NCBI GenBank assembly: GCA_041479245.1
Contig: JBGOXS010000015.1
Coordinates: forward strand, 7,446 to 71,445
Length of the DNA stretch: 64,000 nt
Direction: 5' to 3'
Origin: Anaerolineae bacterium
GTDB taxonomy: Bacteria > Chloroflexota > Anaerolineae > Anaerolineales > UBA4823
The position numbers and the translations under genes were made by a program. Shown in pieces: positions 252 to 60,220 of the stretch. How positions within the stretch are numbered: position 1 is the stretch's first letter; each line of letters opens with the position of its first letter. The notes below the pieces were generated by a model. That model searched no databases, had not been told where the DNA came from, and was given only the letters and a program-made list of their open reading frames with translations.

Positions 252-539
252 AATAATGACCATCCAACGCAGAATAAGAATTGACGCGCCATCCAAGCGC
301 AACACAGCTGAACCTGGCAACCCCAGACGGAATGGCAGGCATTAGACCCTTCCGAGAAACCTTTAGGGGATAGGCTCACCCTGCGCCTCGTGGTGGATCG
401 GGGGAACCTCTGACCAGGCCTAGCTCAAAGATTAAAAACTATTTATTCGGTAGTTATCTAAACGCATTATAATTTTATTCGTTCCGCCTCGGAAGCGATG
501 TCGTGCTCGATGGGCAATTTTTTAAATCGGGATGTGATT

Positions 540-1595
540 ATGCGTAAAGCCATCATGCTTCTTTTCACCATGCTGTTGGTCATCAGCGCAACCGGCAGCG
601 CAAAAGCCGCGCCGATTCAAAGCGAGCAGCCAGTGGTGCATGCTGTCCTTTTCTTCTCAAACGGCTGCCCGTACTGCAGCGATGTATTGACCAAGACGCT
701 GCCCCCCATCCAGGACCAATATCAATCTCAGTTGAGCCTCATGCTGATAGAAGTTGCTACCCTCCAGGATATTAATAACCTGTACGCCCTGGGAGATGCT
801 CTGGGCTTGACCAAGGAGCAAGTGGCGGTGCCCTTTCTACTGGTTGATCGCACACCGCTCATCGGGGTTGATGAAATCAACAATCAATTTTCGGGTTTGA
901 TCGACAAATACCTTAAGAGCGGCGGGCTGGAATACCCCGATCTTCCCCTATTGAACGAGATGCTACCCAAAGGGATTGCATTCACCTCGTATGACCCATC
1001 CCTGCACCTCGTCCCCCCAACGGCAACCGTTTCTCAGTCCACCGGAACGGCGTTGGCTTGGGGCGTCATGGCGATCATGATCATCGCTCTTATCCTGGTT
1101 GGAGTGATGATCGTGCGCGCCTTCCAGGGTACGCCAATGAATGAAGTGAAAGGTTGGTTGGATCTGGTGATTCCCATCCTTGCCATCGTCGGTCTGGGCG
1201 CAGCCATCTACCTTACCTATGTCGAGGTGACCCATACTAATGCCATCTGCGGGCCTGTGGGTGACTGCAACGCGGTCCAAAGCAGCCCGTATGCCAAACT
1301 GTTCGGTTTAATCCCCATTGGCGTGGTGGGTGCGGTGGGGTATATCGCCATCCTGTTCACCTGGCTGTGGGGCTGCTTCCGGAGTGATGCATTTTCCAAG
1401 GCTGCCGGCCCGATCATGTTTGCCATGGCGCTGTTTGGCACCCTTTTCTCCATCTACCTGACCTATCTTGAGCTGTTTGTCATCCATGCAGTCTGCATCT
1501 GGTGCCTCTCCTCGGCAGTTATCATCACAGCACTGATGCTGCTCAGCCTACCCTTCGTCACACAATGGCTGGCGATTTCAGACGATGAGGAGTAG
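540..1595 (+). CDS. Thioredoxin-like domain fused to a vitamin K epoxide reductase (VKOR) family membrane oxidoreductase
   Basis: ATG at 540 gives the signal peptide MRKAIMLLFTMLLVISATGSAKA. The exported N-terminal part carries CPYC. The C-terminal multi-TM part has the VKOR loop cysteines CGPVGDC and the CIWC motif. The ORF-track start at 498 is less likely. Confidence 0.75.
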   Translation: MRKAIMLLFTMLLVISATGSAKAAPIQSEQPVVHAVLFFSNGCPYCSDVLTKTLPPIQDQYQSQLSLMLIEVATLQDINNLYALGDALGLTKEQVAVPFLLVDRTPLIGVDEINNQFSGLIDKYLKSGGLEYPDLPLLNEMLPKGIAFTSYDPSLHLVPPTATVSQSTGTALAWGVMAIMIIALILVGVMIVRAFQGTPMNEVKGWLDLVIPILAIVGLGAAIYLTYVEVTHTNAICGPVGDCNAVQSSPYAKLFGLIPIGVVGAVGYIAILFTWLWGCFRSDAFSKAAGPIMFAMALFGTLFSIYLTYLELFVIHAVCIWCLSSAVIITALMLLSLPFVTQWLAISDDEE

Positions 1596-2841: not shown

Positions 2842-2915
2842 GGTCAGCAGATTAGGCATCTATAGAGTGGAACAGGTATATATTTGAGAATTATTCCCGT
2901 CTTGGAGACTGGTAA

Positions 2916-2944
2916 TTGACGAAGCCATAGGGAGATGGTAAAAT
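2916..2944 (+). promoter_or_regulatory. Sigma-70-type promoter for tRNA-Glu
   Basis: TTGACG (2916-2921), 17-nt spacer, TAAAAT (2939-2944), about 13 nt upstream of the mature tRNA 5' end. Confidence 0.55.
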
Positions 2945-2957
2945 TCCGACGCTTTCC

Positions 2958-3030
2958 GCCCCCATTGTCTAGTGGCCCAGGACGCGGCCCTCTCAAGGCC
3001 GAAACACGAGTTCGAACCTCGTTGGGGGCA
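2958..3030 (+). tRNA. tRNA-Glu (anticodon CUC)
   Basis: Folded by hand. Acceptor GCCCCCA/TGGGGGC, anticodon stem CGGCC/GGCCG with loop CTCTCAA, T-arm ACGAG-TTCGAAC-CTCGT, discriminator A. CCA is not encoded. Confidence 0.9.
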
Positions 3031-3059
3031 TAAAAATATATCGTCTAGAAGTTCCAGAT

Positions 3060-3090
3060 AATACACCCAGACTGAGGGTGTATTTGTTTT
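3060..3090 (+). terminator. Rho-independent terminator after tRNA-Glu
   Basis: Stem AATACACCC / GGGTGTATT with a 7-nt loop, then TGTTTT. Confidence 0.7.
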
Positions 3091-3160
3091 AACCGCCCCA
3101 GCGACTCGATCGGTCAACCCGAGGTATCTGGAAGCTTATCCGTTATACGCGTTTATCAAT

Positions 3161-4009
3161 TTAATATTTCTCCACCGCATTCAGCTTCACCGGCGGATAG
3201 ATTTGGCCCGCTACCGGTGGCATGGGGTTATAAACCCAATCCACCTTAACTACGCCAGCTTTGACCCCCGCCATGTGGCGTATACCCAGATATTTTCCGC
3301 GCAGCAGCACATCTTCCATAGTGAGCGCCATACTGAAGACCGCCACATCGGCGCCGGTTGGAATCGCTTTCAGCTCGTCGGTATACACGGAGGTCGAAAA
3401 CAGAATATGCTGCCCGTCCAGGCTTTGGGTTTGGATAGCGGGGATAATGTATGGGTAGCCATCTCCATCGACCCAGGAAATAAATTTCAGGTTATCAAGT
3501 TTATCCAGGAAGGAGCGAGTCCAGGGATTGAGCACCTCCACTTTACTGGATTTGCGGGTCAGCGTGCGTGCCACCATGGTTTGAACAGCCGCAAAGATGA
3601 TACGGTTCATGGGCAGGGGTTGTTCACCCGTGTGGGAAAGCAGAGCAAGATAGTAGACTGTGTGAATGCCAAAATAGGCATTGTAACGGAACATCGGCAC
3701 ATTATTGTAGTAATCGTACTCCACCCCTTCTCGTGTGGAGTGGGTGAAAGTTGCCTTGCCACGCCATAGATTTTTTTCCAAGCTCATGATTAGAAAGGCA
3801 GTTTTAGGGTTATTCAGAATATGCTGCTTGGAGAGGCCCTCGGTGAACTGGCCAAACGACAGCTGCTGCGGTGCGCATGCCATCAGGGACGAGATCAGCG
3901 TGACGTGGGGCAATCCCGCGGGTGAGATGGTAGCAAGCAGGCCAATTTTCATCGCCGGTTGGGTGCTCAGGATATCTTGAGGAGAAAAGGTGGACTTGGA
4001 TATGTTCAT
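3161..4009 (-). CDS. Pyridoxamine-5'-phosphate-oxidase-like (split-barrel) family protein, two-domain; last gene of the GRE operon
   Basis: 282 aa. The N-terminal KIGLLATISPAGLPHVTLISSL resembles PNPOx-like FMN-binding split-barrel proteins, and a second similar half follows (WVDGDGYPYIIP). It lies 24 nt downstream of the activase. The function call is from motif memory only. Confidence 0.5.
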   Translation of the reverse strand: MNISKSTFSPQDILSTQPAMKIGLLATISPAGLPHVTLISSLMACAPQQLSFGQFTEGLSKQHILNNPKTAFLIMSLEKNLWRGKATFTHSTREGVEYDYYNNVPMFRYNAYFGIHTVYYLALLSHTGEQPLPMNRIIFAAVQTMVARTLTRKSSKVEVLNPWTRSFLDKLDNLKFISWVDGDGYPYIIPAIQTQSLDGQHILFSTSVYTDELKAIPTGADVAVFSMALTMEDVLLRGKYLGIRHMAGVKAGVVKVDWVYNPMPPVAGQIYPPVKLNAVEKY

Positions 4010-4033
4010 ATTAGTTTCCTGCGTTGATACAAT

Positions 4034-4987
4034 CTACCTGGTAGTTCCTGTAGCACGGATGATTTCGGGGTGGCCTGAGGCGGATTTCGCCACTTGTTCG
4101 AAATCTCGCAACTCAGCCGCCGTCATCAATGGTGTACTCGCATAAGCCCATTCCACGCCGAGACGGGTATATTGGTCGCGGCATAGATTGTTGAAGGCGC
4201 ACAGCTCCCAGCGTTCCACGCCGCCAGTAATCTCATCACTGAGATAATATCCCAGAGCGGTCAGATTGTCGCCGGTCGCGGTTGTCCCTGGGATAAGCGG
4301 GGTGCGGATCCAGAGTTTGAATTGCCAAGACTGGCGCTGCTGCACATCAAGGAGGTGGAGCAGGTTATCCAGGATTTGGCGATTCGAGCTGCCGGTGTAT
4401 TGTCGGTGCAGGTCTGCGTCATATAGCTTCAGATCATAGAGCACCAGGTCTGTGAAAGGCAGTAGACGGTCCAGTGTTGCCGAAGGACACAACCCACATG
4501 TGTCAAGGGCCGTAGAGATGCCATTTTCTTTCAGCGCAAGCAGCAATGCCTCAGCGAAATCAGCCTGCAAGGTTGGCTCGCCGCCGGAAAGCGTCACCCC
4601 ACCACCCGATTTTTGGAAATATGCGCGGTCTTTGAGCAGCTCAGCCAATAGCTCATCCACGGAAATGGTTTTGCCCAACAGCTCGAGTGCGCCGGCAGGG
4701 CAGGCTTCGGCACAATCGCCGCAACCATCGCAGCGTGCCCGATCAATACTGAGCCCGGAATCGGTTCGGGTCAGGCAGTGGTCGGGACATGCCGATAAAC
4801 AGGTATCACAGCGGATGCAGCGGATAGCAAACCACTGTATCTGCGATTGGGAGGAGAGACTCTCGGGGTTATGGCACCATGCACAGCGCAATGGACAGCC
4901 TTTAAAGAAAACCGTGGTACGGATTCCGGGGCCATCCTCGGTTGAAAGGCGCTGTAGGTGCAGGATGCGTCCGGTGAGGGGCGTCAT
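4034..4987 (-). CDS. Glycyl-radical enzyme activating protein (radical SAM, PflA-like with extra ferredoxin-type clusters)
   Basis: It carries the CPLRCAWCHN (CX3CX2C) motif. Two further Cys clusters are present: CIRCDTCLSACP and CDGCGDCAEACP. The GGEP motif is present. The start overlaps the GRE stop by 4 nt. Confidence 0.9.
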   Translation of the reverse strand: MTPLTGRILHLQRLSTEDGPGIRTTVFFKGCPLRCAWCHNPESLSSQSQIQWFAIRCIRCDTCLSACPDHCLTRTDSGLSIDRARCDGCGDCAEACPAGALELLGKTISVDELLAELLKDRAYFQKSGGGVTLSGGEPTLQADFAEALLLALKENGISTALDTCGLCPSATLDRLLPFTDLVLYDLKLYDADLHRQYTGSSNRQILDNLLHLLDVQQRQSWQFKLWIRTPLIPGTTATGDNLTALGYYLSDEITGGVERWELCAFNNLCRDQYTRLGVEWAYASTPLMTAAELRDFEQVAKSASGHPEIIRATGTTR

Positions 4988-7503
4988 TTCATTTGATGGC
5001 TTTCGCGAGCAATGATCTCATTCTGCAATTCACGCCCGATGGAGGTGAAGTAGGCGTTGTAACCGGTAACACGCACCAGCAGGTGGCGGTAATTCTCGGG
5101 GTTTTTCTGGGCATCGCGGAGCATGTCGGCATTGATCAGGTTTATTTGCAAGGCAGAGCCACCATTTTCGATATAGCCGAGTAGGAAGGATTTGAATTTA
5201 TCGCGGTGCTCAGGGTCACGCAGGATGGATGGATTGAAAGTCATGGTGTGGCTGCCGCCATTAGGTAGTACGTTCAGGTATTCAGCCCAATCACCGTGAC
5301 CGTCTGCAGCTTTCCCACCCAAAACCTTACCCACCGAGTTGACGTTGGCGGTCGGACCATTGTTATCGGCGCCGTTAGAGGGACAGAGCGCATTGGACAG
5401 GAATTTGCCTTGCGGACGCCCGTCTGGGCTGGCCGGCAGGATGAAGGAATCGGCCACCCAATAGTTCCAGCTTAACATCCCAGGGCGAAACTGGCGGCCA
5501 GTGGACTGCGTACGGTACTTCCAGGTTTCTTCCGTCCATAACTCCATCACCTGGCGCGCCTGATCATCGGCAGCGTCGTCGTCGCGGCCGTATTTGGGTG
5601 CTTTATGAAGGGCGCGTGCCTGCAAGACTTCATGACCCACCCAGTTATCGCGCAACGCCTGAACAAGCTCAGCCATCGTACAGAACTGGTTATCATAAAC
5701 GAGATACTTCACTGCCAGGAGTGAATCGACGGTAGTGGCATACGTGACCGCCTCGATGGTGACGTAGCCCAGCTCGGCGCCGCCCTCGTTAATATCCAGG
5801 CCCTTTTGAGCGCAGCCTTTGATCAGGCAGGATACGTAGGGTGTAGGTGCGAAGCGGGCCCGCAGGGATTCGCTCTGCTCGTAAAGCGCAACGATGCGGC
5901 GAATAATGCCGCGCGTCTGGGCAGCGTAGGCCCGCCAGAATTGATCCCAGTTTTCGAACTGGGTAGGATCGCCAGTATCTTCACCCCAACGCTTAACCTC
6001 CTCTGACTTGCCGGTCAGTGGGTCTTTGAATGGTAGAAGATCATAACCGCCGGTGAGGGTCAGCTCAACGGCTTTGAGCAGGTTCAGGTTGGCGTCCACT
6101 GTGCCAGAGCGATCATTGCCGACCATGGTATTTTCCAGGCAGCCCACCGGGGCATAATCAAAAACGTTTTGTTCGTTGATGAGCTGGGTCACTCCCGACT
6201 TTTTCGCCTGGAGCATCATCCCGGCCATCGAGCGCTCATCGAAATTGAGCAGAAAAGGCGAGCCCTGGCTGGACGCAATCATATCCACCACGCGGGTGAG
6301 AAGTTTATCGGGTGTATTGCGGTGCAAGCGCACATTAGGCTTGGGTTCAAGGATGGGTGACATCTCATCTATCACGTCCAACAGGATATAGGTGAAATCA
6401 TTAGACATATCCTGCCCTCCTTGACCCATACCCGAAATGGTAAACAGCTGCCCATAACCGGCAGTGATGCCCTGATTGCCACCGGTACGGATCAAGCCAT
6501 CGTAAGCGGTGTTGCAGTGGATCCAGAAGCATTTGAGAATTTCCTTACCGAACTCCGGGTCCATCCCCTCATCGATGGATTTTTGCCACAAGGGGAACAG
6601 GTATTGGTCCAGCCTGCCGAATGAATCACCCGGGCCGGGATAGTTCTCGTCGGCCATGACCAGCATATGGGTCAGCCACAGTGCCTGGACTGCCTCCCAA
6701 AAAGTCTGAGGAGGCTCCCAGGGCACACACAACAGGTTATCGGCCATCTGAGCCAGCTCTGCACGGCGGATGGAATCTGGCTCAATTTCAGCCAGGCGGT
6801 TACATTCACGGCAGTATGCTTCTGCCAGGTCACGTGGCAGCGTGGCCGCGATCATCATCGCCCGTAATTGACTACCCTTTTTACCGGCTTTATCGGCGCT
6901 GGAAAGGGTTGCATAAGCTCCCTCCAATTCCGCATAGATTGCTTTCCAACCCTCACGGATAATGCGCCCATAATCCGGGATGATGTGACCGGAGGTGGCG
7001 CCTGCATTACCGTAGCCATGATTATGAAACCACAACATGGCTGCTCGGCTGCCATTTGGTCCATACACCAGGCTGTCACGCTGCGTGGTTTCTTTTTCCG
7101 TCAGGCAAGCCGAGGTCATAATATTGAAACGCCCCCCGGCGAGCAAATCACCGGGCAGGATTTCTTGAGGTAGATATTTCACCATGACTTCACGGTTGAA
7201 CCAGGCGCGGCGTTCAGGCATTGACCACTTCCAGAATTCCCGATCCAGCTGCACGGGATGCGCCACCTGCTTAAAAGAAGAACGGAAAGTCTGTAGGAAC
7301 GTGTAAGTTTCAGGGACGATATAAAAGCTCAGCTCGTTATACTGGAAATCCCAGGGTGTACCTGTAGTCCAGGAAGAGTATTCATTGTTCCAGGCGCGTT
7401 TAACGCCCTGAAAATAATACTCGCGCAGCCATTGGATGCGCGAGGAGAGATTCGTGGGGGTTTTAATGGCGTAACGGGGTTGGTCGCGGATCACAGTCGC
7501 CAT
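4984..7503 (-). CDS. Glycyl-radical enzyme (PFL superfamily), substrate unknown; 1,2-eliminase-like active-site loop
   Basis: 839 aa. C-terminal glycyl-radical motif LLVRVTGYNAYF. Thiyl loop PVGCLEN (Cys-x-Glu). Coupled to an activase. Confidence 0.9.
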   Translation of the reverse strand: MATVIRDQPRYAIKTPTNLSSRIQWLREYYFQGVKRAWNNEYSSWTTGTPWDFQYNELSFYIVPETYTFLQTFRSSFKQVAHPVQLDREFWKWSMPERRAWFNREVMVKYLPQEILPGDLLAGGRFNIMTSACLTEKETTQRDSLVYGPNGSRAAMLWFHNHGYGNAGATSGHIIPDYGRIIREGWKAIYAELEGAYATLSSADKAGKKGSQLRAMMIAATLPRDLAEAYCRECNRLAEIEPDSIRRAELAQMADNLLCVPWEPPQTFWEAVQALWLTHMLVMADENYPGPGDSFGRLDQYLFPLWQKSIDEGMDPEFGKEILKCFWIHCNTAYDGLIRTGGNQGITAGYGQLFTISGMGQGGQDMSNDFTYILLDVIDEMSPILEPKPNVRLHRNTPDKLLTRVVDMIASSQGSPFLLNFDERSMAGMMLQAKKSGVTQLINEQNVFDYAPVGCLENTMVGNDRSGTVDANLNLLKAVELTLTGGYDLLPFKDPLTGKSEEVKRWGEDTGDPTQFENWDQFWRAYAAQTRGIIRRIVALYEQSESLRARFAPTPYVSCLIKGCAQKGLDINEGGAELGYVTIEAVTYATTVDSLLAVKYLVYDNQFCTMAELVQALRDNWVGHEVLQARALHKAPKYGRDDDAADDQARQVMELWTEETWKYRTQSTGRQFRPGMLSWNYWVADSFILPASPDGRPQGKFLSNALCPSNGADNNGPTANVNSVGKVLGGKAADGHGDWAEYLNVLPNGGSHTMTFNPSILRDPEHRDKFKSFLLGYIENGGSALQINLINADMLRDAQKNPENYRHLLVRVTGYNAYFTSIGRELQNEIIARESHQMK

Positions 7504-7562
7504 GAATGGCTCCTCTCAAGGTACTGATGGATTCTGGCTCTTATCATTTTTAGGTGGTACTT

Positions 7563-7591
7563 AGTATAGCACGTCTATAAGGCGGAAACAA
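7563..7591 (-). promoter_or_regulatory. Candidate promoter of the GRE operon
   Basis: The minus strand reads TTGTTT, 17 nt, TGCTATACT (extended -10), about 55 nt upstream of the GRE ATG. Confidence 0.35.
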
Positions 7592-7625
7592 TTCCGTCCG
7601 ACGGGTGAAAAATCTGTCCCATATG

Positions 7626-7653
7626 TTACGCATCCATCAACTCATGCTATACT
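7626..7653 (+). promoter_or_regulatory. Candidate promoter of the sulfatase-anSME operon
   Basis: TTACGC, 16 nt, then the same 9-mer TGCTATACT (7645-7653) found in the divergent GRE promoter. Confidence 0.35.
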
Positions 7654-7708
7654 CGTTTATCGGCAGAATGGCCAACTGAAATTAAGGTTGGGTAATTCCA
7701 GGAGGAGA

Positions 7709-9142
7709 ATGACGCCCAAGAAATTGAGCCGGCGTGGGTTTCTGAAAGTGGCTGCCATCGGGGGTGGGGTAGTGGCCGTTGGGGGAATTGCCCGGCAGGT
7801 GCATAACCAGGTCGGGCGGAATTTCCGACCCGACCGGGCTCTGACCTACCTGGAACAGATCCAAACCAATTCGAGCCCTGAGACATCGCCTAATATCATT
7901 ATCATCCTGTGTGATGACCTCGGCCTGGGCGACCTGGAATCAACGGCGATCAACCAACCCAACCTACGCCGTATGGCCGATGAAGGCACTACACTGACCA
8001 ACTTTTACGCCGGTGCGTCTGTGTGCAGTCCATCCCGTGCTGGGCTGCTGACCGGGCGCTACCCCGTGCGGACGCTTATTTCCACACCGCTGCTCTCTAC
8101 AAATAATCCACTGAACCCGATAATGGACGTATTGGGGCGCTATTCTTATAATGTGCGCGGTATTCCGAAAGATGAGCTACTCTTATCGGAAGTTCTGCAG
8201 CATAGAGGTTATCGCACAGGCATGGTAGGAAAATGGCACCTGGGTGGCACAGCCGGATATCTACCCAACGACCGGGGCTTTGACACCTTCTACGGTGCAA
8301 AGTGGAGCAACGACGATACGCCATATGCCATTTACCGCGACCGGCAGGTGGAGATTCCTGCGCCAGCCAACCAAGATAACCTGACCCACAATTTTACGGT
8401 GGAAGCACAAAATTTCATCCAGGAGAACAAAGACAGGCCATTTTTCCTGTACCTGGCGCATGCCATGCCGCACTTCCCGGTGCATGCCTCAGCGGCATTC
8501 CAGGACACTTCGGTAGCGGGACGGTATGGAGATGCTGTGCAGGAAATCGATTGGAGCGTAGGGCAGATCCTCACTACGCTTAAGCAGCTCGGATTGGATG
8601 ATAATACACTCGTGGTTTTCAGCAGCGATAATGGGCCGTGGATGGAAGGCAACCCAGGCTACCAGCGGGGGCGAAAACTGGAATGGTTCGAAGGCGGGTT
8701 CCGGGTGCCCTTCATTGCCAGGTGGCCGGGAGTAATCCCACCGGGCATAACCAACCCTGAGATGATCATTAACTATGACCTCTTCCCGACATTTGTTAAT
8801 CTTGCTGGGGCGGTGGTACCACAAGACCGGATCATCGATGGGAAAGATATCCTAACCGTCTTAAAAGGAGAATCACCATCTCCCCACGATACTTTTTTCT
8901 ATTATGACACACGCACGGCCGTCGCGGTACGCTACCAGCAGTGGAAGTACTGCCGCCGCCACCTGACTGATATCGCCGCATATTGGCCGCTGAAGCAGGG
9001 ACCCTTCCTGTTTAACCTGGATACAGACCCGAATGAATCCTACAGCATGATCGACTCTGAGCCCGAGCTGGCGAAAAAACTCTCTGGCATGCTGGATACA
9101 TTCAATGCTGAGATGAAGGCCAATCTGCGCGGCTGGTTATGA
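7709..9142 (+). CDS. Cys-type (formylglycine-dependent) sulfatase with Tat signal
   Basis: GGAGGAG RBS precedes the ATG at 7709. Twin-arginine signal SRRGFLKVAAIGG. Sulfatase signature CSPSRAGLLTGRYP and the DDLG metal-site motif. Confidence 0.9.
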   Translation: MTPKKLSRRGFLKVAAIGGGVVAVGGIARQVHNQVGRNFRPDRALTYLEQIQTNSSPETSPNIIIILCDDLGLGDLESTAINQPNLRRMADEGTTLTNFYAGASVCSPSRAGLLTGRYPVRTLISTPLLSTNNPLNPIMDVLGRYSYNVRGIPKDELLLSEVLQHRGYRTGMVGKWHLGGTAGYLPNDRGFDTFYGAKWSNDDTPYAIYRDRQVEIPAPANQDNLTHNFTVEAQNFIQENKDRPFFLYLAHAMPHFPVHASAAFQDTSVAGRYGDAVQEIDWSVGQILTTLKQLGLDDNTLVVFSSDNGPWMEGNPGYQRGRKLEWFEGGFRVPFIARWPGVIPPGITNPEMIINYDLFPTFVNLAGAVVPQDRIIDGKDILTVLKGESPSPHDTFFYYDTRTAVAVRYQQWKYCRRHLTDIAAYWPLKQGPFLFNLDTDPNESYSMIDSEPELAKKLSGMLDTFNAEMKANLRGWL

Positions 9143-9230
9143 GCACCAGATCATGAATACCACGCGGAGACCGTATACAACCCAAACCACCCGCACCGAT
9201 AACACCATCATCACCTTCTGTACATAGACT

Positions 9231-10481
9231 GTGCCAACCCAAACAGAGCCTCCATTCCCTGGCTTCACTTTGTTAGCCAAGCCCACAGGTGCAGCGTGCA
9301 ACCTGGCATGTGAATACTGTTTTTATCTCAGCAAGGAGCAGCTGTATCCTGAGAGCCGTATGCGCATGCCTGACGGAGTATTGGAGGCTTACATCCGGCA
9401 GATATTGGCCGCGCAGCCGGCATCGGAAACCTGCATTGCATGGCAAGGGGGTGAGCCGACGCTAATAGGTATGAATTTTTTCGAGCGCTCGATAAAGCTG
9501 GTCGAACAGTACCGGATGCCTGGCCAGCTGGTGAGGTACACCCTCCAGACCAATGGGACCAGACTAGACGACGAGTGGTGCGAGTTCTTTAAGCAACATA
9601 AGTTCCTGATCGGCCTTAGCATGGATGGCCCCCAGGAAATGCACGATGCCTACCGTGTGGATAAGGGAGGACAAGGCAGCTTCGAGCAAGTAAGGGCCGG
9701 TTGGGATTTGCTTCAGAAGCACAAGGTAGACACCAATATCCTATGCGCCGTCCATGCAGCCAATGCACCGCATCCATTGGATGTGTACCGCTTTTTTCGA
9801 GATGAGTTAAACGCCCGGTTCATCCAGTTCATCCCCATCGTCGAGCGATCTAGCCGTAATAGGCGCCAACGCTCACAAGATGGTCTCCAAGGGCCAGATG
9901 GTAACAGACGGCTTCGTTATACGCAGAAAGAAAAGCTGGTCAGCTCCCGTTCGGTGACCCCTGACCAATTCGGTAGTTTTCTGATCGATATTTTCGAGGA
10001 GTGGGTGCATCACGACGTCGGCGACGTATTTATCCAGACTTTCGAGGCGGCATTAGCCAGCTGGTGCCAGCTTCCAGCCAACGTGTGCATCTTCCAGGAA
10101 GTGTGCGGCTCGTCGCTGGTGCTGGAACACAACGGTGACTTGTACGCTTGTGATCATTTCGTTGAGCCGGGCTATCGCCTGGGTAATATTCTGGAGATCC
10201 CTATGACCGGGCTGGTGAGCACGCCGCAGCAGCGCCAATTCGGATTGAACAAGCGAGAGCAGTTGCCAACATACTGCCACGAGTGTGAGGTCTTATTTGC
10301 GTGCCACGGTGAATGCCCTCGCAACCGCTTCGTGAAGTGCTCGGGTGGGAAAGAAGAAGGACTTAACTATTTATGCTCCGGATATAAACGATTCTTCCAG
10401 CATATCGATCGACCGATGCGGCTCATGAGCGAGCTTTTACGCTTGGGGCGTTCACCAGCAGAGGTCATGGAGATGTTGTGA
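9231..10481 (+). CDS. Anaerobic sulfatase-maturating enzyme (radical SAM/SPASM)
   Basis: CNLACEYCFY radical-SAM motif. C-terminal SPASM-type Cys clusters (CIFQEVCG, CDHF, CHECEVLFACHGECPRNR). GTG start. Confidence 0.85.
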   Translation: MPTQTEPPFPGFTLLAKPTGAACNLACEYCFYLSKEQLYPESRMRMPDGVLEAYIRQILAAQPASETCIAWQGGEPTLIGMNFFERSIKLVEQYRMPGQLVRYTLQTNGTRLDDEWCEFFKQHKFLIGLSMDGPQEMHDAYRVDKGGQGSFEQVRAGWDLLQKHKVDTNILCAVHAANAPHPLDVYRFFRDELNARFIQFIPIVERSSRNRRQRSQDGLQGPDGNRRLRYTQKEKLVSSRSVTPDQFGSFLIDIFEEWVHHDVGDVFIQTFEAALASWCQLPANVCIFQEVCGSSLVLEHNGDLYACDHFVEPGYRLGNILEIPMTGLVSTPQQRQFGLNKREQLPTYCHECEVLFACHGECPRNRFVKCSGGKEEGLNYLCSGYKRFFQHIDRPMRLMSELLRLGRSPAEVMEML

Positions 10482-10710
10482 TCGTTCGAGCCGACGCGAG
10501 GCAGCACTTGAAAGAGCTGCCTCGACGCAGGTAGCCATCAGATTGATAAGTGTCATTTTCATTTCTCGACCTCCCGCCTGGAACGTCTCCAGCTCCACAT
10601 TCATGCGAGAAATGACTTTCTATACCGACTGGTTCGGTGTTCAATTTGGCAGGCAGATACATCCGCTCAGGGATAAAGCAGATTAACCACAGGGACTCTG
10701 TGGGTAATAC

Positions 10711-10745
10711 AAAAAATCGCCGGAAATTCCAGCGATTTCTTTTCA
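10711..10745. terminator. Bidirectional hairpin between convergent anSME and ABC-2 genes
   Basis: Stem AAATCGC / GCGATTT with an 11-nt loop, an A-run on the left and TTTCTTTTC on the right. Confidence 0.45.
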
Positions 10746-10767
10746 TCTACTGATCATTGCATGGACA

Positions 10768-11592
10768 TTATGATCGGCGAGTACGTACACTCAGAGCAAA
10801 GACCGCTAACGCATACATAGCGGCCGCCAAAAGGAGACATGCCAATATGCTGATGCCGATGGCATGCGCATCCCAGCCGTTGTTAAGGAGAGAGCGCATA
10901 GCTTCCAGCACATAGGTGATGGGATTTAGTTTGGCAGCAACCGCCAACCACCCTGAGAGCAGTGCCAGAGGAACGAAGGTGGGTGCAAGGAAGGTCAATG
11001 GAAAGAACAGGAAGCTGGCTCCTTGAGTGGCAGCCGCGCTACCGCTTCCCAGCGCCGCCGACACCGTGAAACCGGCGAACCCGAGGCCGAGTAGTACGCC
11101 CAGTCCAATGACCACTAACAGACCTAGAATACCTGTAGCAGGTTTAAGACCCAGTAGCAGACCTACTGAGACGACAATGGTTGATTGGATTCCTAAGATC
11201 ACAGCACCGGCCAAAATTGGAGCGACCAGCAACGCTGCCCGACGGACCGGTGTGAGAAGTAATTTATCGAAATAGCCACGCTCGATGTCGCGCACCAGAT
11301 TCTGGGCAGCAATACCGGAACCAGATAGAGATCCACTGACGATCGAGAGTGGTAGGATAAATCCTAAATAACTACCTCCGATGCCCGGTATGAAACTGGA
11401 TGCCTTACCCAGCGTCGATTGGTAGATCACTAAAAAGAAGATACTGATAGCCAAGGGTGGCAGTAATGCTTCAGGCGTGCGCAGTAAGGTCGTCAGCGAA
11501 CGGACGACCAACAGGTAAATATGGACGGGTAGCGAAAGGGTAGTGTTTTTCGTGGGCTGTTTGACTGATAGTGTGTTGACTTGTGTATCCAT
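10768..11592 (-). CDS. ABC-2 type transporter permease
   Basis: 274 aa, 6 predicted TM. It lies immediately downstream (2-nt gap) of the ABC ATPase. Confidence 0.8.
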   Translation of the reverse strand: MDTQVNTLSVKQPTKNTTLSLPVHIYLLVVRSLTTLLRTPEALLPPLAISIFFLVIYQSTLGKASSFIPGIGGSYLGFILPLSIVSGSLSGSGIAAQNLVRDIERGYFDKLLLTPVRRAALLVAPILAGAVILGIQSTIVVSVGLLLGLKPATGILGLLVVIGLGVLLGLGFAGFTVSAALGSGSAAATQGASFLFFPLTFLAPTFVPLALLSGWLAVAAKLNPITYVLEAMRSLLNNGWDAHAIGISILACLLLAAAMYALAVFALSVRTRRS

Positions 11593-12858: not shown

Positions 12859-13926
12859 TTACATTCGCCTTGCAGCTGATTCACTCTCTTTGGCTTTTGC
12901 GTTCAGGGCTTGTAAAGGCACTTCGACAGTGCGGGCAGGCGGCTCGCGGGTCACGTAAAAAACCGGCGCCGGCACTTCCGGACGGGCGGTGGCAGTGGCA
13001 ATTCGTTGTGTGGCCTCGGCCGGAACCGCCGCTTGCTGAGCCTTGCTAAGGTAGATGAACCAATACATCAGACCCACCATCACTACACCACCAATAATAT
13101 TCCCAATGGTCACCGGTACCAGGTTTACCAGGAAGAAATTGCTCCAGGTGAGGTGAGAAAAATCCGCCGGGGTTTTCTTGATCGCTTCGAAAAAGGCGGG
13201 CGACCCAAACTGCTTGATGAACAGGGCGACGGGGATGAAGTACATGTTAGCAATGCTGTGCTCGAAGCCCGCTGCAACGAAGGCAGCGATGGGGGGCACG
13301 ATCGCCAGGATCTTATCGATAGTGCTGCGTGCGCTATAGCACATCCAGACAGCCATGCACACCAAGGCGTTGCAGAATATACCCAACACCACAGCCTGAG
13401 CAAATCCCAGAGCTGTTTTGGCCTCACCGGTATTGAGTGCGGCCAGACCTATCGAACCGGCGCCAAAGGTGTACTGGCGGGTAAGGAACATCAGGTAAGC
13501 GGTCAACAACGCACCGACGAAATTACCCAGGTAAACGATGCCCCAATTGCGCAGTAAGGCAGGTAGGGCGATGCGCCGGTTGGCGAAGGCAATGATGACC
13601 AGGCTGTTGCCAGTGAATAGCTCTGAGCCTGAGACGACCACCAGTATCAGGCCGAGGGTAAAGGTGACGCCGGCTAGCAGGCGGGCGATGCCGAATGGCA
13701 GGGCTGATGCTCCGGCGCTGACGGTGGTGGCGAATACGGCGCCCATGGCGATGAATGCACCTGCCAGGATGGCGAGCAGGAACATGCGCACAGTATCTAA
13801 TTTCGTTTTCTTCACCCCCGTCTCGGCGGCTTTTACGGCCATCTCGGCGGGCGTCAAGGCATCAAAGGATACTTCCTTGGTGGGTTGTCGATTATCTCTT
13901 GGGGTATGTGTGGAAGTGGTAAACAT
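12859..13926 (-). CDS. Formate/nitrite transporter (FNT) family channel with about 50-aa C-terminal extension
   Basis: FNT hallmarks GSELFTGN and EHSIANMY, six TM. The ATG at 13926 is preceded by GAGGTGA. The ORF-track TTG at 13944 would overlap the upstream gene. Confidence 0.85.
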   Translation of the reverse strand: MFTTSTHTPRDNRQPTKEVSFDALTPAEMAVKAAETGVKKTKLDTVRMFLLAILAGAFIAMGAVFATTVSAGASALPFGIARLLAGVTFTLGLILVVVSGSELFTGNSLVIIAFANRRIALPALLRNWGIVYLGNFVGALLTAYLMFLTRQYTFGAGSIGLAALNTGEAKTALGFAQAVVLGIFCNALVCMAVWMCYSARSTIDKILAIVPPIAAFVAAGFEHSIANMYFIPVALFIKQFGSPAFFEAIKKTPADFSHLTWSNFFLVNLVPVTIGNIIGGVVMVGLMYWFIYLSKAQQAAVPAEATQRIATATARPEVPAPVFYVTREPPARTVEVPLQALNAKAKESESAARRM

Positions 13927-13936
13927 TGGGGTCACC

Positions 13937-14545
13937 TCATGCAATCGTGGCTATCTGTGTATCTATGGCGAAGATATGATCATAGCGCTCGTCAATCGGC
14001 GAAGCGACAGGCAACTCGGGCTGGATAATTTTTAACAGCCCTTGGCACATGGCATTCAATCCAGCATGGGCCAATTCTGACTGGGGGAGTCCGGTCTGCC
14101 CGGCGGTCTTATCAAAAGGGCAATCGCAGATGATAAAACGCAGCTCGGGACCAATCTGATGGATGGTGAAATCCACCCGCAGCGTCTCGAGTACGCATTC
14201 CAATGCGCAAACCCCCGGGTTTGGGAACCCATCCAGGAAGATGTTGTCCAACATGTACATGGCAGCCGCCTGACCTAAGCCGCTGCCAAAACTCTCCATA
14301 AGGGCATATGATTGGCTCTCATCGAATCCGGTCTGACAGAACATGGCATATTCCAGGAAAATTTCACACAGGGAGATGGCGGTTTGTTCACCTGCGCCGT
14401 TCAGTTCCCCCCAAATCTGAAAACCGTGGACGAGATCATCACGGGCATAAACATCACGCTGCCCGACTTCGTTGTAATACATATCGCTGCTCGCAATAGG
14501 ATAACGACAGATCAATGTGGGTTTGATTTGAACAGATGATGGCAT
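13937..14545 (-). CDS. Hypothetical Cys-rich cytoplasmic protein, co-transcribed with the FNT channel
   Basis: 202 aa from the ATG at 14545 (RBS GAGGAGAAG). Cys motifs LICRY, GVCALECV, IICDCPFDK. I recognise no family. Confidence 0.6.
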   Translation of the reverse strand: MPSSVQIKPTLICRYPIASSDMYYNEVGQRDVYARDDLVHGFQIWGELNGAGEQTAISLCEIFLEYAMFCQTGFDESQSYALMESFGSGLGQAAAMYMLDNIFLDGFPNPGVCALECVLETLRVDFTIHQIGPELRFIICDCPFDKTAGQTGLPQSELAHAGLNAMCQGLLKIIQPELPVASPIDERYDHIFAIDTQIATIA

Positions 14546-37917: not shown

Positions 37918-38290
37918 GTATTTCCACGATTATCATTCGTTAACAAGCCGTTTGAAATAGTATGTTATTTCAAACAGACCAAGTGCGATTGGTTCTTTTT
38001 CCCTTTTAGTGGCGTTCACCAGTTTCCAACCTTATTTGCCCAGTTCATCAAACATCTTGTTTTCCGATACCCATGCAGGAGAAATAAAAATCCCATGTGT
38101 AGACGTAGTCGCAACAATGGTTTTAAATTCCCTTGATGGCATATTTAGATTATCGCCCCGCTTTTCCAGCGGGTCAAGCAAATTAGTTGCGATTACGATA
38201 AAACAATGGGCAGCTCGTAAACCAGCCGCTGGGCGTTCCGCCTGGTTAACATCTCCAAGACTAATATTTTATGGGTAATAAACCAATCCA

Positions 38291-38707
38291 TCAACGGCAA
38301 CCATCATGGGCTGCAGATATAAAAATACCGTCTGCAAAACTTTCATAAATACCGACTTGCTTTTTAAACAGGCTTTTACATACTGGGCATACTAAATCAT
38401 CCTTGCGTGTTTCCCAGAACTTATACATATCAACGCCTTGTTTCTGGAGATCCTCCCCTTCTAATTGCTGTACGTTAGCAGTAGCCCTCGTAATCTCGGT
38501 AACAGCTATAACGTTTGCCCGCTCCTCACCAACATATTTACTGATCTTATTTGACACATCTCCCAGGGTAGTACCGCCCTTTAAATAAAAATCAGAAATT
38601 GCTTTTTTGATCGCACCTTTTTCTTTTTCTGTAAGATCGCGGCATGTTTCCCCTGCGTTCTTTCTCGCCCAATTAGCACCGCCAATTTTTGCTAACGACC
38701 ATCCCAT
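38291..38707 (-). pseudogene. Phage head-morphogenesis protein (Mu F / SPP1 gp7 family), C-terminal fragment
   Basis: ERANVIAVTEITRATANV...FWETRKDDLVCPVCKSL matches the MuF C-terminal core. The N-terminal two-thirds is missing. Upstream frames contain stop-interrupted remnants. Confidence 0.6.
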
Positions 38708-38869
38708 CTCATGCCTTCATAGTGCCGCTATCTTATTTTCCACCCCGCCCATGATAGGGGAGGCGTAGCGTCCCCGCCGCTTTGGCTTATGACAGACTGT
38801 ATTCCACTCGTCATTCTCAAGTTCATTTTTTTTTATTCCTATTCAGATTATTTCCACCCTCTCAATATT

Positions 38870-39619
38870 CTACGGTAATGTTCCGTCAACCTGTAATCTA
38901 TACGAAGTAACGTCGGCATAATCACGACTGAAGAAAGTTATATCGAAGGAACTTATTTGCCCAGGAGCTAAATCAGTGCTATTAACGTAAGTAAAATCAC
39001 AACCAACAACCTTGCCCAGATTGTTATACAGAGTACCTACTGGACTAACAAATTTAACACTAACCCCTTCATTATTACCAACCTGACCAATGATATCGTA
39101 CCATCCAAATGTAGTATCGTATGAGCCACTGTCGTTTAGAACTGTAAGGTTGGGTAAAGGTTGACCATCCGTAAAATAGGTCGGAGCTTCAAATTGATAA
39201 TATGCCCATCCAGAAGGGACTGGTACAGAAACCTCAAAGCATGTAATTCCCCATGCGGGTAAATAGTCCAGGTATATATAGGTGAAATCACTGTAGAGAA
39301 GTTGCCCACTGGCATTAAAAAAGTTGGCAGTGATTTTGACGAAACTCAAGTCATCGCCAGTATTATTCAGAACTTCACCTACGACATTAAGATAGTTAAT
39401 ACTATCTATATAATAAGAATCATTGGGTAGGATTTGAACCTCAGATGGATTCGAAGTTGGGGTTGGACTTGGAATAATTATTGGAGTACTTGTTTTAGTT
39501 GGGGTCAGAGTCGGTTGTTTATAAACAATGGGTATATAGGTCTGAAAGGCTAATGCTACACTTACCCAAATACCAAGCATTGCAAGCGCCAAAATGAAAA
39601 CTAAAAAGACTCTCTTCAT
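38870..39619 (-). CDS. Secreted protein with Thr/Pro linker and two FxLYD-like beta modules
   Basis: Signal/TM MKRVFLVFILALAMLGIWVSVALA and linker TPTKTSTPIIIPSPTPTSNP. Two homologous modules follow (VVGEVLNNTGDDLSFVKITANFFNASGQLLYSD / IIGQVGNNEGVSVKFVSPVGTLYNNLG). Confidence 0.65.
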   Translation of the reverse strand: MKRVFLVFILALAMLGIWVSVALAFQTYIPIVYKQPTLTPTKTSTPIIIPSPTPTSNPSEVQILPNDSYYIDSINYLNVVGEVLNNTGDDLSFVKITANFFNASGQLLYSDFTYIYLDYLPAWGITCFEVSVPVPSGWAYYQFEAPTYFTDGQPLPNLTVLNDSGSYDTTFGWYDIIGQVGNNEGVSVKFVSPVGTLYNNLGKVVGCDFTYVNSTDLAPGQISSFDITFFSRDYADVTSYRLQVDGTLP

Positions 39620-40163
39620 ATATCTCCTCCTTCTACTATGAAGTAGTTTTGGTTTTCAGGAATAATTACTTATTAATTATTTTACACCTGCACAACTTTT
39701 CTCATCCCAATGATTGTGCCTCGTATTTCACAGTCTTTTCTATGTCTACCCTACATACACATTCTTCCCATAACATTTCGACAATTTCCAGAATTGGACG
39801 GCTTTTCTTGCCTGGCACATCACTCCCTTGAAAGTAAGCAACATCTATCCACTTAGTAGAGTAACTGATGGCTTAATTAATCCATTTTTTGTAATGCTTC
39901 AACGTTCTGTTGATCAATAATAAAGTGATTTTTTTACTCATGCACAATCCATAAAAATATATATGCAGTTATTTTATCCGGCCTAACCCTCATTGTTTCT
40001 CAATAATGATATCGATCGATAACAGCAATACCCACCCACACCCATATTAATTTCGAAAAGTGTGGCATGTAATTTGCAATAAAAACTCTGTGAAAGCGGT
40101 TCATTCTAGCCCGCTAAAGCCAAGTTGAATTCACACAATGAGAGAATAAAAGGAGAGCGAATT

Positions 40164-59272: not shown

Positions 59273-60220
59273 ATGTACACAAACAATCAGGACAACTCAA
59301 CGCACACGATTATAGAAAATCTTGTCCGTTACAACCTACTTGAATGGGCAAATCAATTCTATCAATCGAAGAAAATAGAAGGGGTTTCAGGGTTTACTCT
59401 TACCTTCTATAAACAGCAACTAGGGCATTTCCTGAAATATTGTGAATCGCAACTTATCACCAGTCTTGAAGAAATCACACCAAACGTTATCCGTCAATTC
59501 TTGTTATGGCATCAGGAAACAGGGCATAACCCTGGCGGTCTGCATGCTGCGTTCCGCACCATAAGGGTTTTCTTGCTATGGTACGAGAGTGAAGCTGAAC
59601 CAGAAGGTTGGAAGAACCCTATCAATAAAGTAAAAGCACCCAAAATCCCTACCAAGTTTCTCGAACCAGTTGATTTGGAGGATATATCTATCATGTTAGC
59701 CACTTGTAAAACTGGCTCATTTCTGGATTATAGAGATAAAGCATTATTATTGTTTCTCTTAGACTCAGGAGCAAGAGCAAGAGAAATTATCCAAATCGAC
59801 ATTATGGATGTAGACCTGGTTAGTGGGGCTGTATTAATACTGCGCGGTAAAGGAGCAAAGCCACGCACTGTATTCTTAGGAAAATCAAGCCGAAAGGCTC
59901 TACGAGCATATCTAAAGCGTCGTGGAGACAGTAACCCTGCTTTATGGATAACAGGTGAAGGAGAGAGGTTGGAATATGGAGGCTTACGGGGCATCTTAAC
60001 CCGAAGGGCAAAACTGGCCGATATAATAGCCCCGTGCTTACATTCTTTCAGGAGAGCATTTGCTATTAATATGTTACGCGCAGGGGTGGATGTGTTCAGC
60101 CTTCAAAAGTTAATGGGTCATTCAGACCTACAAGTGTTGCGTAGGTATCTCGCTCAAACGACTGAGGACGTTGCCCAGGCACACAGGATTGGTAGCCCGG
60201 TGGATAGGAACAATATTTGA
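59273..60220 (+). CDS. Tyrosine recombinase / phage-type integrase
   Basis: Catalytic residues in context: DSGARAREI (Arg), GKGAKPR (Lys), HSFRRAF (His-x-x-Arg), GHSDLQVLRRY (His, Tyr). RBS AGGAGG. Confidence 0.9.
   Translation: MYTNNQDNSTHTIIENLVRYNLLEWANQFYQSKKIEGVSGFTLTFYKQQLGHFLKYCESQLITSLEEITPNVIRQFLLWHQETGHNPGGLHAAFRTIRVFLLWYESEAEPEGWKNPINKVKAPKIPTKFLEPVDLEDISIMLATCKTGSFLDYRDKALLLFLLDSGARAREIIQIDIMDVDLVSGAVLILRGKGAKPRTVFLGKSSRKALRAYLKRRGDSNPALWITGEGERLEYGGLRGILTRRAKLADIIAPCLHSFRRAFAINMLRAGVDVFSLQKLMGHSDLQVLRRYLAQTTEDVAQAHRIGSPVDRNNI

Follow-up and report, generated by a model that had tools for sequence, protein, structure and literature searches.

A stretch of 64,000 nucleotides (nt) from an Anaerolineae bacterium (contig JBGOXS010000015.1; the whole stretch is called the window here, and coordinates are window positions unless a locus is named) encodes a glycyl-radical enzyme (GRE), its activating enzyme and a third protein of 282 amino acids (aa), placed back to back with a sulfatase and an anaerobic sulfatase-maturating enzyme (anSME). 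Our findings suggest that these genes probably belong to two unrelated modules, namely, a conserved GRE-activase-partner cassette on the minus strand (3161-7671) and an ordinary sulfatase/anSME pair on the plus strand (7709-10481) that happens to lie beside it. The conserved unit consists of the GRE, the activase and the 282-aa partner, and what is new here is the partner, a type of protein that has not been described for any GRE.

Cassette conservation and the sulfatase neighbourhood

The GRE gene (839 aa; 4984-7503, minus strand), recognised from the list of open reading frames (ORFs) and its Pfam domains, overlaps the start of the activase gene (317 aa; 4034-4987, minus) through an ATGA at 4984-4987, an overlap of the kind associated with translational coupling. 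A gap of 24 nt, which includes an AGGAAA ribosome-binding site, separates the activase stop from the ATG of the partner gene (3161-4009, minus). The activase is a radical-SAM enzyme with Radical_SAM and Fer4 domains and a ferredoxin-like two-cluster insert, and it scores 305 bits with TIGR02494 (cut-off, 174), while the partner was assigned from its AlphaFold2 model, its Foldseek matches and its adjacency to the GRE. The ORFs and junctions thus agree with the original prediction, which had been made from this DNA alone, and the divergent Cys-type, twin-arginine sulfatase with its anSME, which it had also described, is likewise borne out by motifs, Pfam and TIGR03942.

A scan of genomes, one per species, returned 226 stretches; 80 loci with GRE identities of 68-89% were kept, from Anaerolineae, Dehalococcoidia, Spirochaetota and Desulfobacterota, and all window proteins served as tblastn queries to determine their gene content. 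Independently of this set, the partner protein was used as the seed for a further 80 loci from metagenomes; the two sets amount to 160 loci, from at least four phyla. The three genes occur together in 78 of the 80 genome loci, the other 2 being cut by contig ends, and, of the 41 metagenome loci that extend far enough upstream, the partner-seeded search found a GRE in 40. The order GntR-GRE-activase-partner is seen in a complete genome of Desulfobacter sp. (CP054837, L081). Nine loci have no activase directly upstream of the partner, and in several of them the partner abuts or overlaps the GRE, which makes GRE and partner the tighter bond within the cassette; L162 keeps GRE and partner together, with the activase gene about 2.5 kb downstream. 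A gene for an amine-oxidase-like flavoprotein separates GRE and partner in L161 and L169. These two represent, with L152, L170, L142, L143 and L150, one metagenomic lineage; features of that lineage are an ornithine-aminotransferase-like class-III aminotransferase gene that precedes the GRE and the insertion of the flavoprotein, of amine-oxidase/CrtI-like type, between GRE and partner. When the flanks of the 80 genome loci were clustered, the genes found besides a GntR regulator were housekeeping or lineage-specific (MinCD, FtsW, GluRS, cytochrome bd, hydrolases), and neither an aldehyde or alcohol dehydrogenase nor a bacterial microcompartment (BMC) shell protein nor a pyrroline-5-carboxylate (P5C) reductase was found in the cassette.

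The neighbouring sulfatase (477 aa; 7709-9142, plus) is a Tat-exported, Cys-type S1 enzyme (Pfam PF00884, 197.6 bits) with the motif CSPSR (C-x-P-x-R) and the twin-arginine signal SRRGFLK. The ORF list starts it at TTG 7688, but an AGGAGG at 7700-7705 precedes ATG 7709, which is the more probable start, and public assemblies annotate an identical 477-aa product. The spacer between GRE and sulfatase measures 184 bp from the TTG and, with ATG 7709 as the start, 205 bp. The anSME, a radical-SAM/SPASM protein of 416 aa from GTG 9231 (9231-10481, plus), scores 467 with TIGR03942 (cut-off, 349), matches SPASM (PF13186) and has its CxxxCxxC as CNLACEYC at residues 23-30. Public calls (L083-L085) place the start of this protein at what would be 9360 in the window; the resulting 373 aa lack the CxxxCxxC, and translation must therefore begin at GTG 9231 or close to it.

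Sulfatase and anSME stand beside the GRE only in contigs in which the GRE is at least 97% identical or the sulfatase is identical (L082-L085). They are absent from the nearest syntenic relatives, L029 and L049 (88% GRE identity), which have the order FocA, ABC ATPase, ABC-2, GRE-activase-partner, MFS, VKOR, with about 300 bp from ABC-2 to GRE and the ABC-2 gene abutting the GRE leader. In blastn comparisons with these two loci, the 5' leader and promoter region of the GRE operon (7504-7671, minus) is conserved at 7504-7598 and 7639-7671 with 82-83% identity, and a block of about 7672-10771 in the window, a 3.1-kb indel, replaces 167 bp of the relatives. The original prediction had proposed a divergent control region of roughly 200 bp shared by both systems; the spacer has about that length, but since the leader is conserved in relatives that have no sulfatase, some 170 of the 200 bp are ancestral GRE leader. 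A search of the leader with Rfam for a riboswitch that might name a ligand returned no family (the sole match, with E = 6.5, is noise), and a scan of the GRE/sulfatase intergenic region for sigma-70 promoters and terminators was uninformative. A 24-nt block of the leader (7639-7662) is 100% identical to L029 amid diverged intergenic DNA and is a candidate operator or promoter element.

Among the 80 genome loci, a single one (L040) has a sulfatase, which lies over 6 kb past the partner gene, and none has an anSME; the metagenome set gave one unrelated sulfatase match of 25% identity, 4 kb away. Over all 160 loci, the totals are 1 sulfatase, 0 anSME and 46 GntR regulators. These comparisons indicate that the sulfatase/anSME pair is an unrelated module that a recent indel of 3.1 kb placed next to the GRE.

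It had been suggested in the original prediction that the sulfatase desulfates an extracellular ester and that the GRE then eliminates on the freed alcohol, with both operons controlled together from the divergent region. The divergent arrangement with its spacer of 184-205 bp, present in the window and in near-identical assemblies, and the need of both systems for anoxia speak for this proposal, but we regard it as extremely unlikely, as the adjacency is missing from the syntenic 88% relatives with the same GRE leader, is absent from 159 of the 160 independent loci and has as its closest counterpart one distant sulfatase without an anSME. The choline-O-sulfate to choline to trimethylamine (TMA) version fares no better, with a GRE score of 287 against the CutC model (cut-off, 1050) and a sulfatase score of 109 against the choline-sulfatase model (cut-off, 433). 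The adjacency is therefore not conserved in related genomes, which the original prediction had named as one sign of a coincidental neighbourhood; the other sign it named, a GRE inside a characterised clade, was not found. What speaks against a complete separation of the two modules is that sulfatase and GRE do share an intergenic region in this organism, and local co-regulation is possible.

The nearest solved structures to the sulfatase are of the steryl (229.5 bits), GalNAc-6 (GALNS), arylsulfatase A and carrageenan types, all at 190-230 bits. An assignment as the choline sulfatase BetC was rejected on the TIGR03417 score given above and on the 98.6 bits obtained with the choline sulfatase in the Protein Data Bank (PDB).

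The split-barrel partner protein

The Pfam family PNPOx_N matches the whole partner at 28.5 bits (cut-off, 28.1), which is marginal; taken by itself, the N-terminal half reaches 21.8, and nothing matches in the C-terminal half. An AlphaFold2 model built on 44 homologues that are 42-89% identical to the window protein (pLDDT, 87.7; pTM, 0.86) has two consecutive beta-barrels with a long helix between them, and Foldseek matches it with probability 1.0 and TM scores of 0.6-0.7 on the target, over the length of one barrel, to 2htd (a putative PNPOx), HupZ, the D. vulgaris FMN-binding protein, F420 reductases and the prenylated-FMN maturase PhdC. The partner is thus predicted to have a tandem split beta-barrel fold. 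The earlier description of a two-domain PNPOx-like protein holds in that the model has two tandem barrels, but the Pfam match is marginal and confined to the N-terminal half. A profile search against PDB sequences gave one split-barrel relative on each half, with marginal E-values of 0.1 or worse, so that cofactor-binding residues could not be transferred.

The partner alignment has 53 invariant columns. S60 and K61 are among the invariant residues and lie in the N-terminal stretch F55-T-E-G-L-S60-K61...N-P, whose pattern F-T-x-x-x-S-K...N-P resembles the flavin-phosphate motif of PNPOx-type proteins. There is a single Cys in the 282 aa. Two invariant segments, the tail W258...P272 and FRYNAYFG (F107-G114), have lower pLDDT in the model, which is frequently the case for docking elements. 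FRYNAYFG (residues 107-113, 3673-3693) and the radical loop of the GRE, GYNAYF (residues 814-819, 5047-5064), share YNAYF, the only 5-mer common to both proteins; a shuffle test for a shared 5-mer inside the Gly loop gave P = 0.004, this test being post hoc. The segment could be a mimic of the Gly loop or the likeness could be due to chance.

A sister GRE, P0243 (47% identity; L086, 260-3669), is followed with a 7-nt overlap by a homologous partner (34% identical). P0243 has Phe for the catalytic Cys (VSGFHE), its glycine motif is altered to RIFGQKCRF, and the YNAYF motif is gone from both GRE and partner; downstream lie genes for an enoyl-CoA hydratase, a SnoaL-like protein and an ABC importer. 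P0243 is possibly a radical-dead paralogue.

With regard to function, the partner would most likely bind the GRE stoichiometrically, as a cofactor-bearing or regulatory subunit, and the role of subunit or regulator is the one we tentatively favour. What leads us to it is the strict association across phyla, the abutment of partner and GRE in several loci without an adjacent activase, the overlap of the two genes in two lineages and the persistence of the pairing with the sister GRE that has Phe for the catalytic Cys. Two points count on the other side: strict adjacency fits a committed pathway enzyme equally well, and, the PNPOx_N score being marginal, flavin binding by the partner is a candidate trait.

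A more specific form of this idea, which we consider doubtful as yet, is that the partner represents a new type of GRE subunit. In such a two-component GRE, it would dock via its invariant C-terminal tail, and FRYNAYFG, which copies YNAYF of the GRE loop, might also be used for docking; the partner would then gate the installation and storage of the radical, or would supply a flavin or haem cofactor that couples the elimination to a redox step. We know of no GRE that uses a flavin- or haem-coupled radical elimination.

Another possibility, likewise doubtful, is that the partner is no subunit but an FMN- or F420-dependent redox enzyme of the same short pathway that makes the GRE substrate or consumes the GRE product, for instance through the reduction or oxidation of an imine, enamine or aldehyde. 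Its fold relatives are FMN- or F420-dependent oxidoreductases, it has the flavin-phosphate-like motif with invariant S60 and K61, and an amine-oxidase-like flavoprotein or a class-III aminotransferase is present in some lineages. However, the cassette holds no obvious gene for an electron acceptor or donor, the partner is paired even with the Cys-less P0243, and it abuts the GRE in several of the nine loci without an activase directly upstream.

Less probable still is that the partner serves as a dedicated low-potential donor, a substitute for flavodoxin, that reduces the [4Fe-4S] cluster of the activase for installation of the glycyl radical. One fold match of the partner, the D. vulgaris FMN-binding protein, is regarded as a small electron carrier. 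The E. coli PFL activase uses flavodoxin (PMC13450708), and PNPOx-like genes recur in GRE operons, as exemplified by LssP (PMC12583861) and by a 150-aa PNPOx_N protein encoded beside the sister GRE P0247. Against this, the activase of L162 lies about 2.5 kb from the GRE-partner pair, in other loci no activase was found near a partner that abuts the GRE, and split-barrel flavoproteins are usually two-electron enzymes.

Active site, candidate substrate and genomic surroundings

The GRE has the features of its superfamily: a PFL-like barrel (PF02901, 383.6 bits) and a C-terminal glycine-radical domain (Gly_radical, PF01228, 75.2 bits), the RVxG glycine, the catalytic Cys and a cognate activase. 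Solved GRE structures match it with E-values of about 1e-80, among them 2f3o (E = 2e-82). Both motifs named in the original prediction are present, with C455 and E457 in the thiyl loop PVGCLEN and G814 in the radical loop RVTGYNAYF. In 76 of 76 family sequences, G814, C455, E457 and H173 are invariant, and LLVRVTGYNAYFT, H173, VGCLENTMxGNDRSGTVD and FRPGMLSWNYW are invariant or nearly so.

Its closest homologues are proteins from Anaerolineales and Chloroflexi metagenome-assembled genomes. When 1.8 billion representatives (50% clustering) were searched, full-length relatives appeared at 63, 48, 43, 42, 41 and 38% identity, followed by the general GRE pool, which is 30-35% identical at about 280 bits, and the first 170 residues or so align only within the clade and with near relatives. 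The GRE falls under every NCBIfam equivalog cut-off, with scores of a third to little over half of the curated values (PFL2-3 TIGR01774, 387/678; HypD NF043068, 362/1100; HpsG, 356/1000; CutC TIGR04394, 287/1050). By these measures, it appears to form an isolated clade that lies inside no characterised one, and its designation as an uncharacterised enzyme stands. So does its placement by the Cys-x-Glu (CXE) loop among the eliminase and isomerase classes rather than with PFL, in agreement with the alignment and with a TIGR01255 score of 79.8 (cut-off, 994).

Pocket positions were taken from HMMER alignments to solved structures. H173 aligns with His164 of glycerol dehydratase (GD) and C455-L-E457 with C433-V-E435, while L677 and W679 align with Y640 and S642, and GD Y339 falls in a deletion. 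W679 also stands at the position of HypD T645 and at that of an IseG Phe, which we take to match F682 of IslA, and G675 is found at the position of IseG Arg676. The position of HypD Asp278 corresponds to P291/G292 in a longer YPGPG loop, where the alignment is uncertain.

These alignments bear on the idea that the GRE is no more than a diverged orthologue of the known glycerol/propanediol or hydroxyproline dehydratases. A. fulgidus PFL2, HypD and GD are its best PDB and NCBIfam matches, the equivalents of His164 and CXE are retained, and the sister P0247 lies in a glycerol-kinase/G3P-dehydrogenase cluster. We nevertheless consider such an orthologue very unlikely, given the low fraction of the curated cut-offs that is reached, the replacement of Y640/S642 by L677/W679 and of HypD D278 by P291/G292, the loss of GD Y339 in a deletion, and a cassette free of the aldehyde and alcohol dehydrogenases, BMC shell proteins and P5C reductase mentioned above.

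Individual assignments were rejected as follows. For the choline TMA-lyase CutC (287 versus 1050), His173 stands where CutC has an Asp; this residue, Asp216, is at the position of GD His164 and holds the ammonium group. The trans-4-hydroxy-L-proline dehydratase HypD (362 versus 1100) was rejected for want of an Asp278 equivalent, within the uncertainty of the loop alignment, and glycerol/propanediol dehydratase (387 versus 678) because the Y339, Y640, S642 pocket is not retained. In the C-S lyases IslA, IseG and HpsG, an Arg-Gln-Arg triad anchors the sulfonate (PMC13450708); the triad is not retained here, as IseG R187/Q191/R676 correspond to A169/H173/G675, with A169 and H173 extrapolated 1-5 residues past the start of the alignment. 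Pyruvate formate-lyase was rejected on the loop G-C-L-E, which has no Cys-Cys pair, and on the TIGR01255 score.

By definition, GREs of the eliminase and isomerase classes have the CXE motif, and His164 of GD is the proposed general acid that protonates the leaving hydroxyl (PMC13450708). From these two points we infer that the GRE is a 1,2-eliminase-type or ring-opening enzyme. The activase would place the radical on G814, from where it would pass to C455, and the thiyl radical would take a hydrogen from the carbinol carbon of a small hydroxylated substrate. E457 would deprotonate the hydroxyl on that carbon and H173 would protonate the vicinal leaving group, so that a 1,2-elimination or ring opening would give a carbonyl product.

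Neighbouring genes offer weak hints to the substrate. A FadR-type GntR regulator (GntR plus FCD/FadR_C) is encoded directly upstream on the same strand in 46 of the 160 loci and scores highest with NanR, LldR, FadR, GlcC and PdhR; in nine Dehalococcoidia loci, an MFS transporter gene takes this upstream position, with the D-galactonate (anion:cation symporter) subfamily as its best match. Regulators like FadR, LldR and NanR, together with an MFS transporter of the anion-symporter type in one lineage, point to a hydroxy-carboxylate, and the substrate is probably a small hydroxy-carboxylate and possibly a hydroxy-amino acid. A FocA-type formate channel is encoded within a few kb of the cassette in the window, at 12859-13944 (minus), and directly downstream of the partner in L005 and L010. 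We rejected it as a sign of formate production: FocA occurs in 6 of the 160 loci, all of one lineage, which is probably just synteny, and the GRE is without the Cys-Cys pair of PFL.

Several observations weigh against this picture of reaction and substrate. CXE is also found in GRE decarboxylases, so that the motif does not prove the reaction class, and the pocket residues fit no known specificity, so that the substrate cannot be read out from them. The regulator is present in only 46 of the 160 loci, and no FadR-type GntR gene homologous to it was found anywhere in the window. In other lineages, the class-III aminotransferase (4 loci) and the amine-oxidase-like flavoprotein (5 loci) hint at amine chemistry rather than at a plain hydroxy-acid.

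Sister GREs provide further context. P0247 lies near genes for glycerol kinase and G3P dehydrogenase, with the 150-aa single-barrel PNPOx_N gene upstream; P0246 and P0248 are near an iron-containing alcohol dehydrogenase (Fe-ADH) gene, and the archaeal P0245 is near a gene for a thiamine pyrophosphate (TPP) enzyme. The Firmicutes proteins P0246 and P0248 (38-41% identity; L090, 6753-10156, and L092, 8001-11355) have no Gly_radical Pfam match and no CXE loop in the alignment, and they still adjoin an activase; they may be non-canonical aminoacyl-radical enzymes, a group that was reportedly found in 2024. The cluster names of distant sister GREs were uninformative. Taken as genomic context, the sister clades seem to fit a dehydratase-like ancestry without identifying the substrate.

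Elsewhere in the window, a hairpin at 3060-3084 (minus), about 77 nt past the partner stop, emerged from a terminator-like scan and from reading of the sequence as a possible terminator of the operon, with a T-run that is weak on the minus strand. Between the partner gene and an MFS gene lies a tRNA-Glu(CUC) gene (2958-3030, plus). An overlapping 85-aa ORF (2860-3117) is spurious, and what looks like its conservation in relatives is that of the tRNA. In the 365-aa protein encoded at 498-1595 (plus), a VKOR domain covers residues 224-350, in the C-terminal third only, and no domain was assigned to the 220 residues at the N-terminus; in close relatives, the gene keeps its synteny with the MFS_3 gene. 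A tyrosine integrase gene (59273-60220) is followed by DNA of 40% GC with unassignable ORFs up to 64000, probably an integrated element, and a low-GC patch at 38000-40000 contains a weak phage Mu F-like fragment.

Comparison with known systems

Key anaerobic reactions depend on GREs, and whole clades of them are without an assigned function, as the 2026 review of the superfamily stresses (PMC13450708). The clade described here is abundant in metagenomes from soil, sediment, peat and digesters and is found in Chloroflexota, Desulfobacterota and Spirochaetota; with GRE identities of at least 68% between phyla, it probably handles a common environmental metabolite. The system is experimentally tractable, owing to its compact cassette and to the ligand-sensing GntR regulator that many genomes have, and recognition of the sulfatase adjacency as incidental spares effort on a false pathway. 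We consider the findings to be of moderate to high relevance for GRE specialists and for the microbiology of the anaerobic carbon cycle.

The plus-strand module is standard. Pairs of a Cys-type sulfatase and an anSME are known as AtsA/AtsB and from Bacteroides, and only the position of this one beside a GRE is lineage-specific.

The window GRE belongs to the same fold family as the PFL2-type eliminases and isomerases (GD, propanediol dehydratase, HypD, CutC, IslA/IseG, HpsG/HpfG, YbiW/PflD and HplG) and shares with them the glycine loop, the CXE thiyl loop, the His at the position of GD His164 and an activase with a ferredoxin-like insert. It differs from them in its identity of 30-35%, in its own loops GCLENTMxGNDRSGTVD and RVTGYNAYF, in its own pocket residues, in 170 N-terminal residues that can be matched only within the clade and in the constant presence of a split-barrel partner.

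The barrels of the partner superpose on those of the PNPOx family, the D. vulgaris FMN-binding protein, HupZ, Rv1155 and PhdC, with weak sequence similarity in both halves. These split-barrel FMN, F420 and haem proteins generally form homodimers. The partner, in contrast, fuses two barrels in one chain, its sequence similarity to them is at the noise limit, and its motifs FRYNAYFG, MEDVLxRG and WVYNxMPPxxGQxYP were not seen in the split-barrel families whose alignments we examined.

In agreement with the original prediction, which knew of no precedent for a PNPOx-like partner, we found no description in the literature of a GRE paired with a PNPOx or split-barrel protein, and the 2026 review mentions neither a flavoprotein partner nor a sulfatase (PMC13450708). 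The nearest parallels are the single-barrel PNPOx_N gene upstream of P0247 and LssP, a PNPOx-like protein "without clear function" from the limonenylsuccinate synthase operon (PMC12583861).

The accessory subunits of other GREs (HPAD gamma; BSS beta and gamma; MASS beta, gamma and delta) are like the partner in being encoded next to a GRE gene. They are needed for, or modulate, GRE activity in a role that is still called enigmatic; the small subunits of BSS carry [4Fe-4S] clusters and MASS delta a rubredoxin-like single Fe site, and such iron-cofactor subunits of HPAD, BSS and MASS are the only accessory types in the review (PMC13450708). The partner, with its single Cys, is unlike them: it is predicted to be a tandem split beta-barrel and a relative of flavin and haem proteins, and its strict pairing with a GRE would, if our view of it is correct, add a new type of accessory protein to the superfamily.

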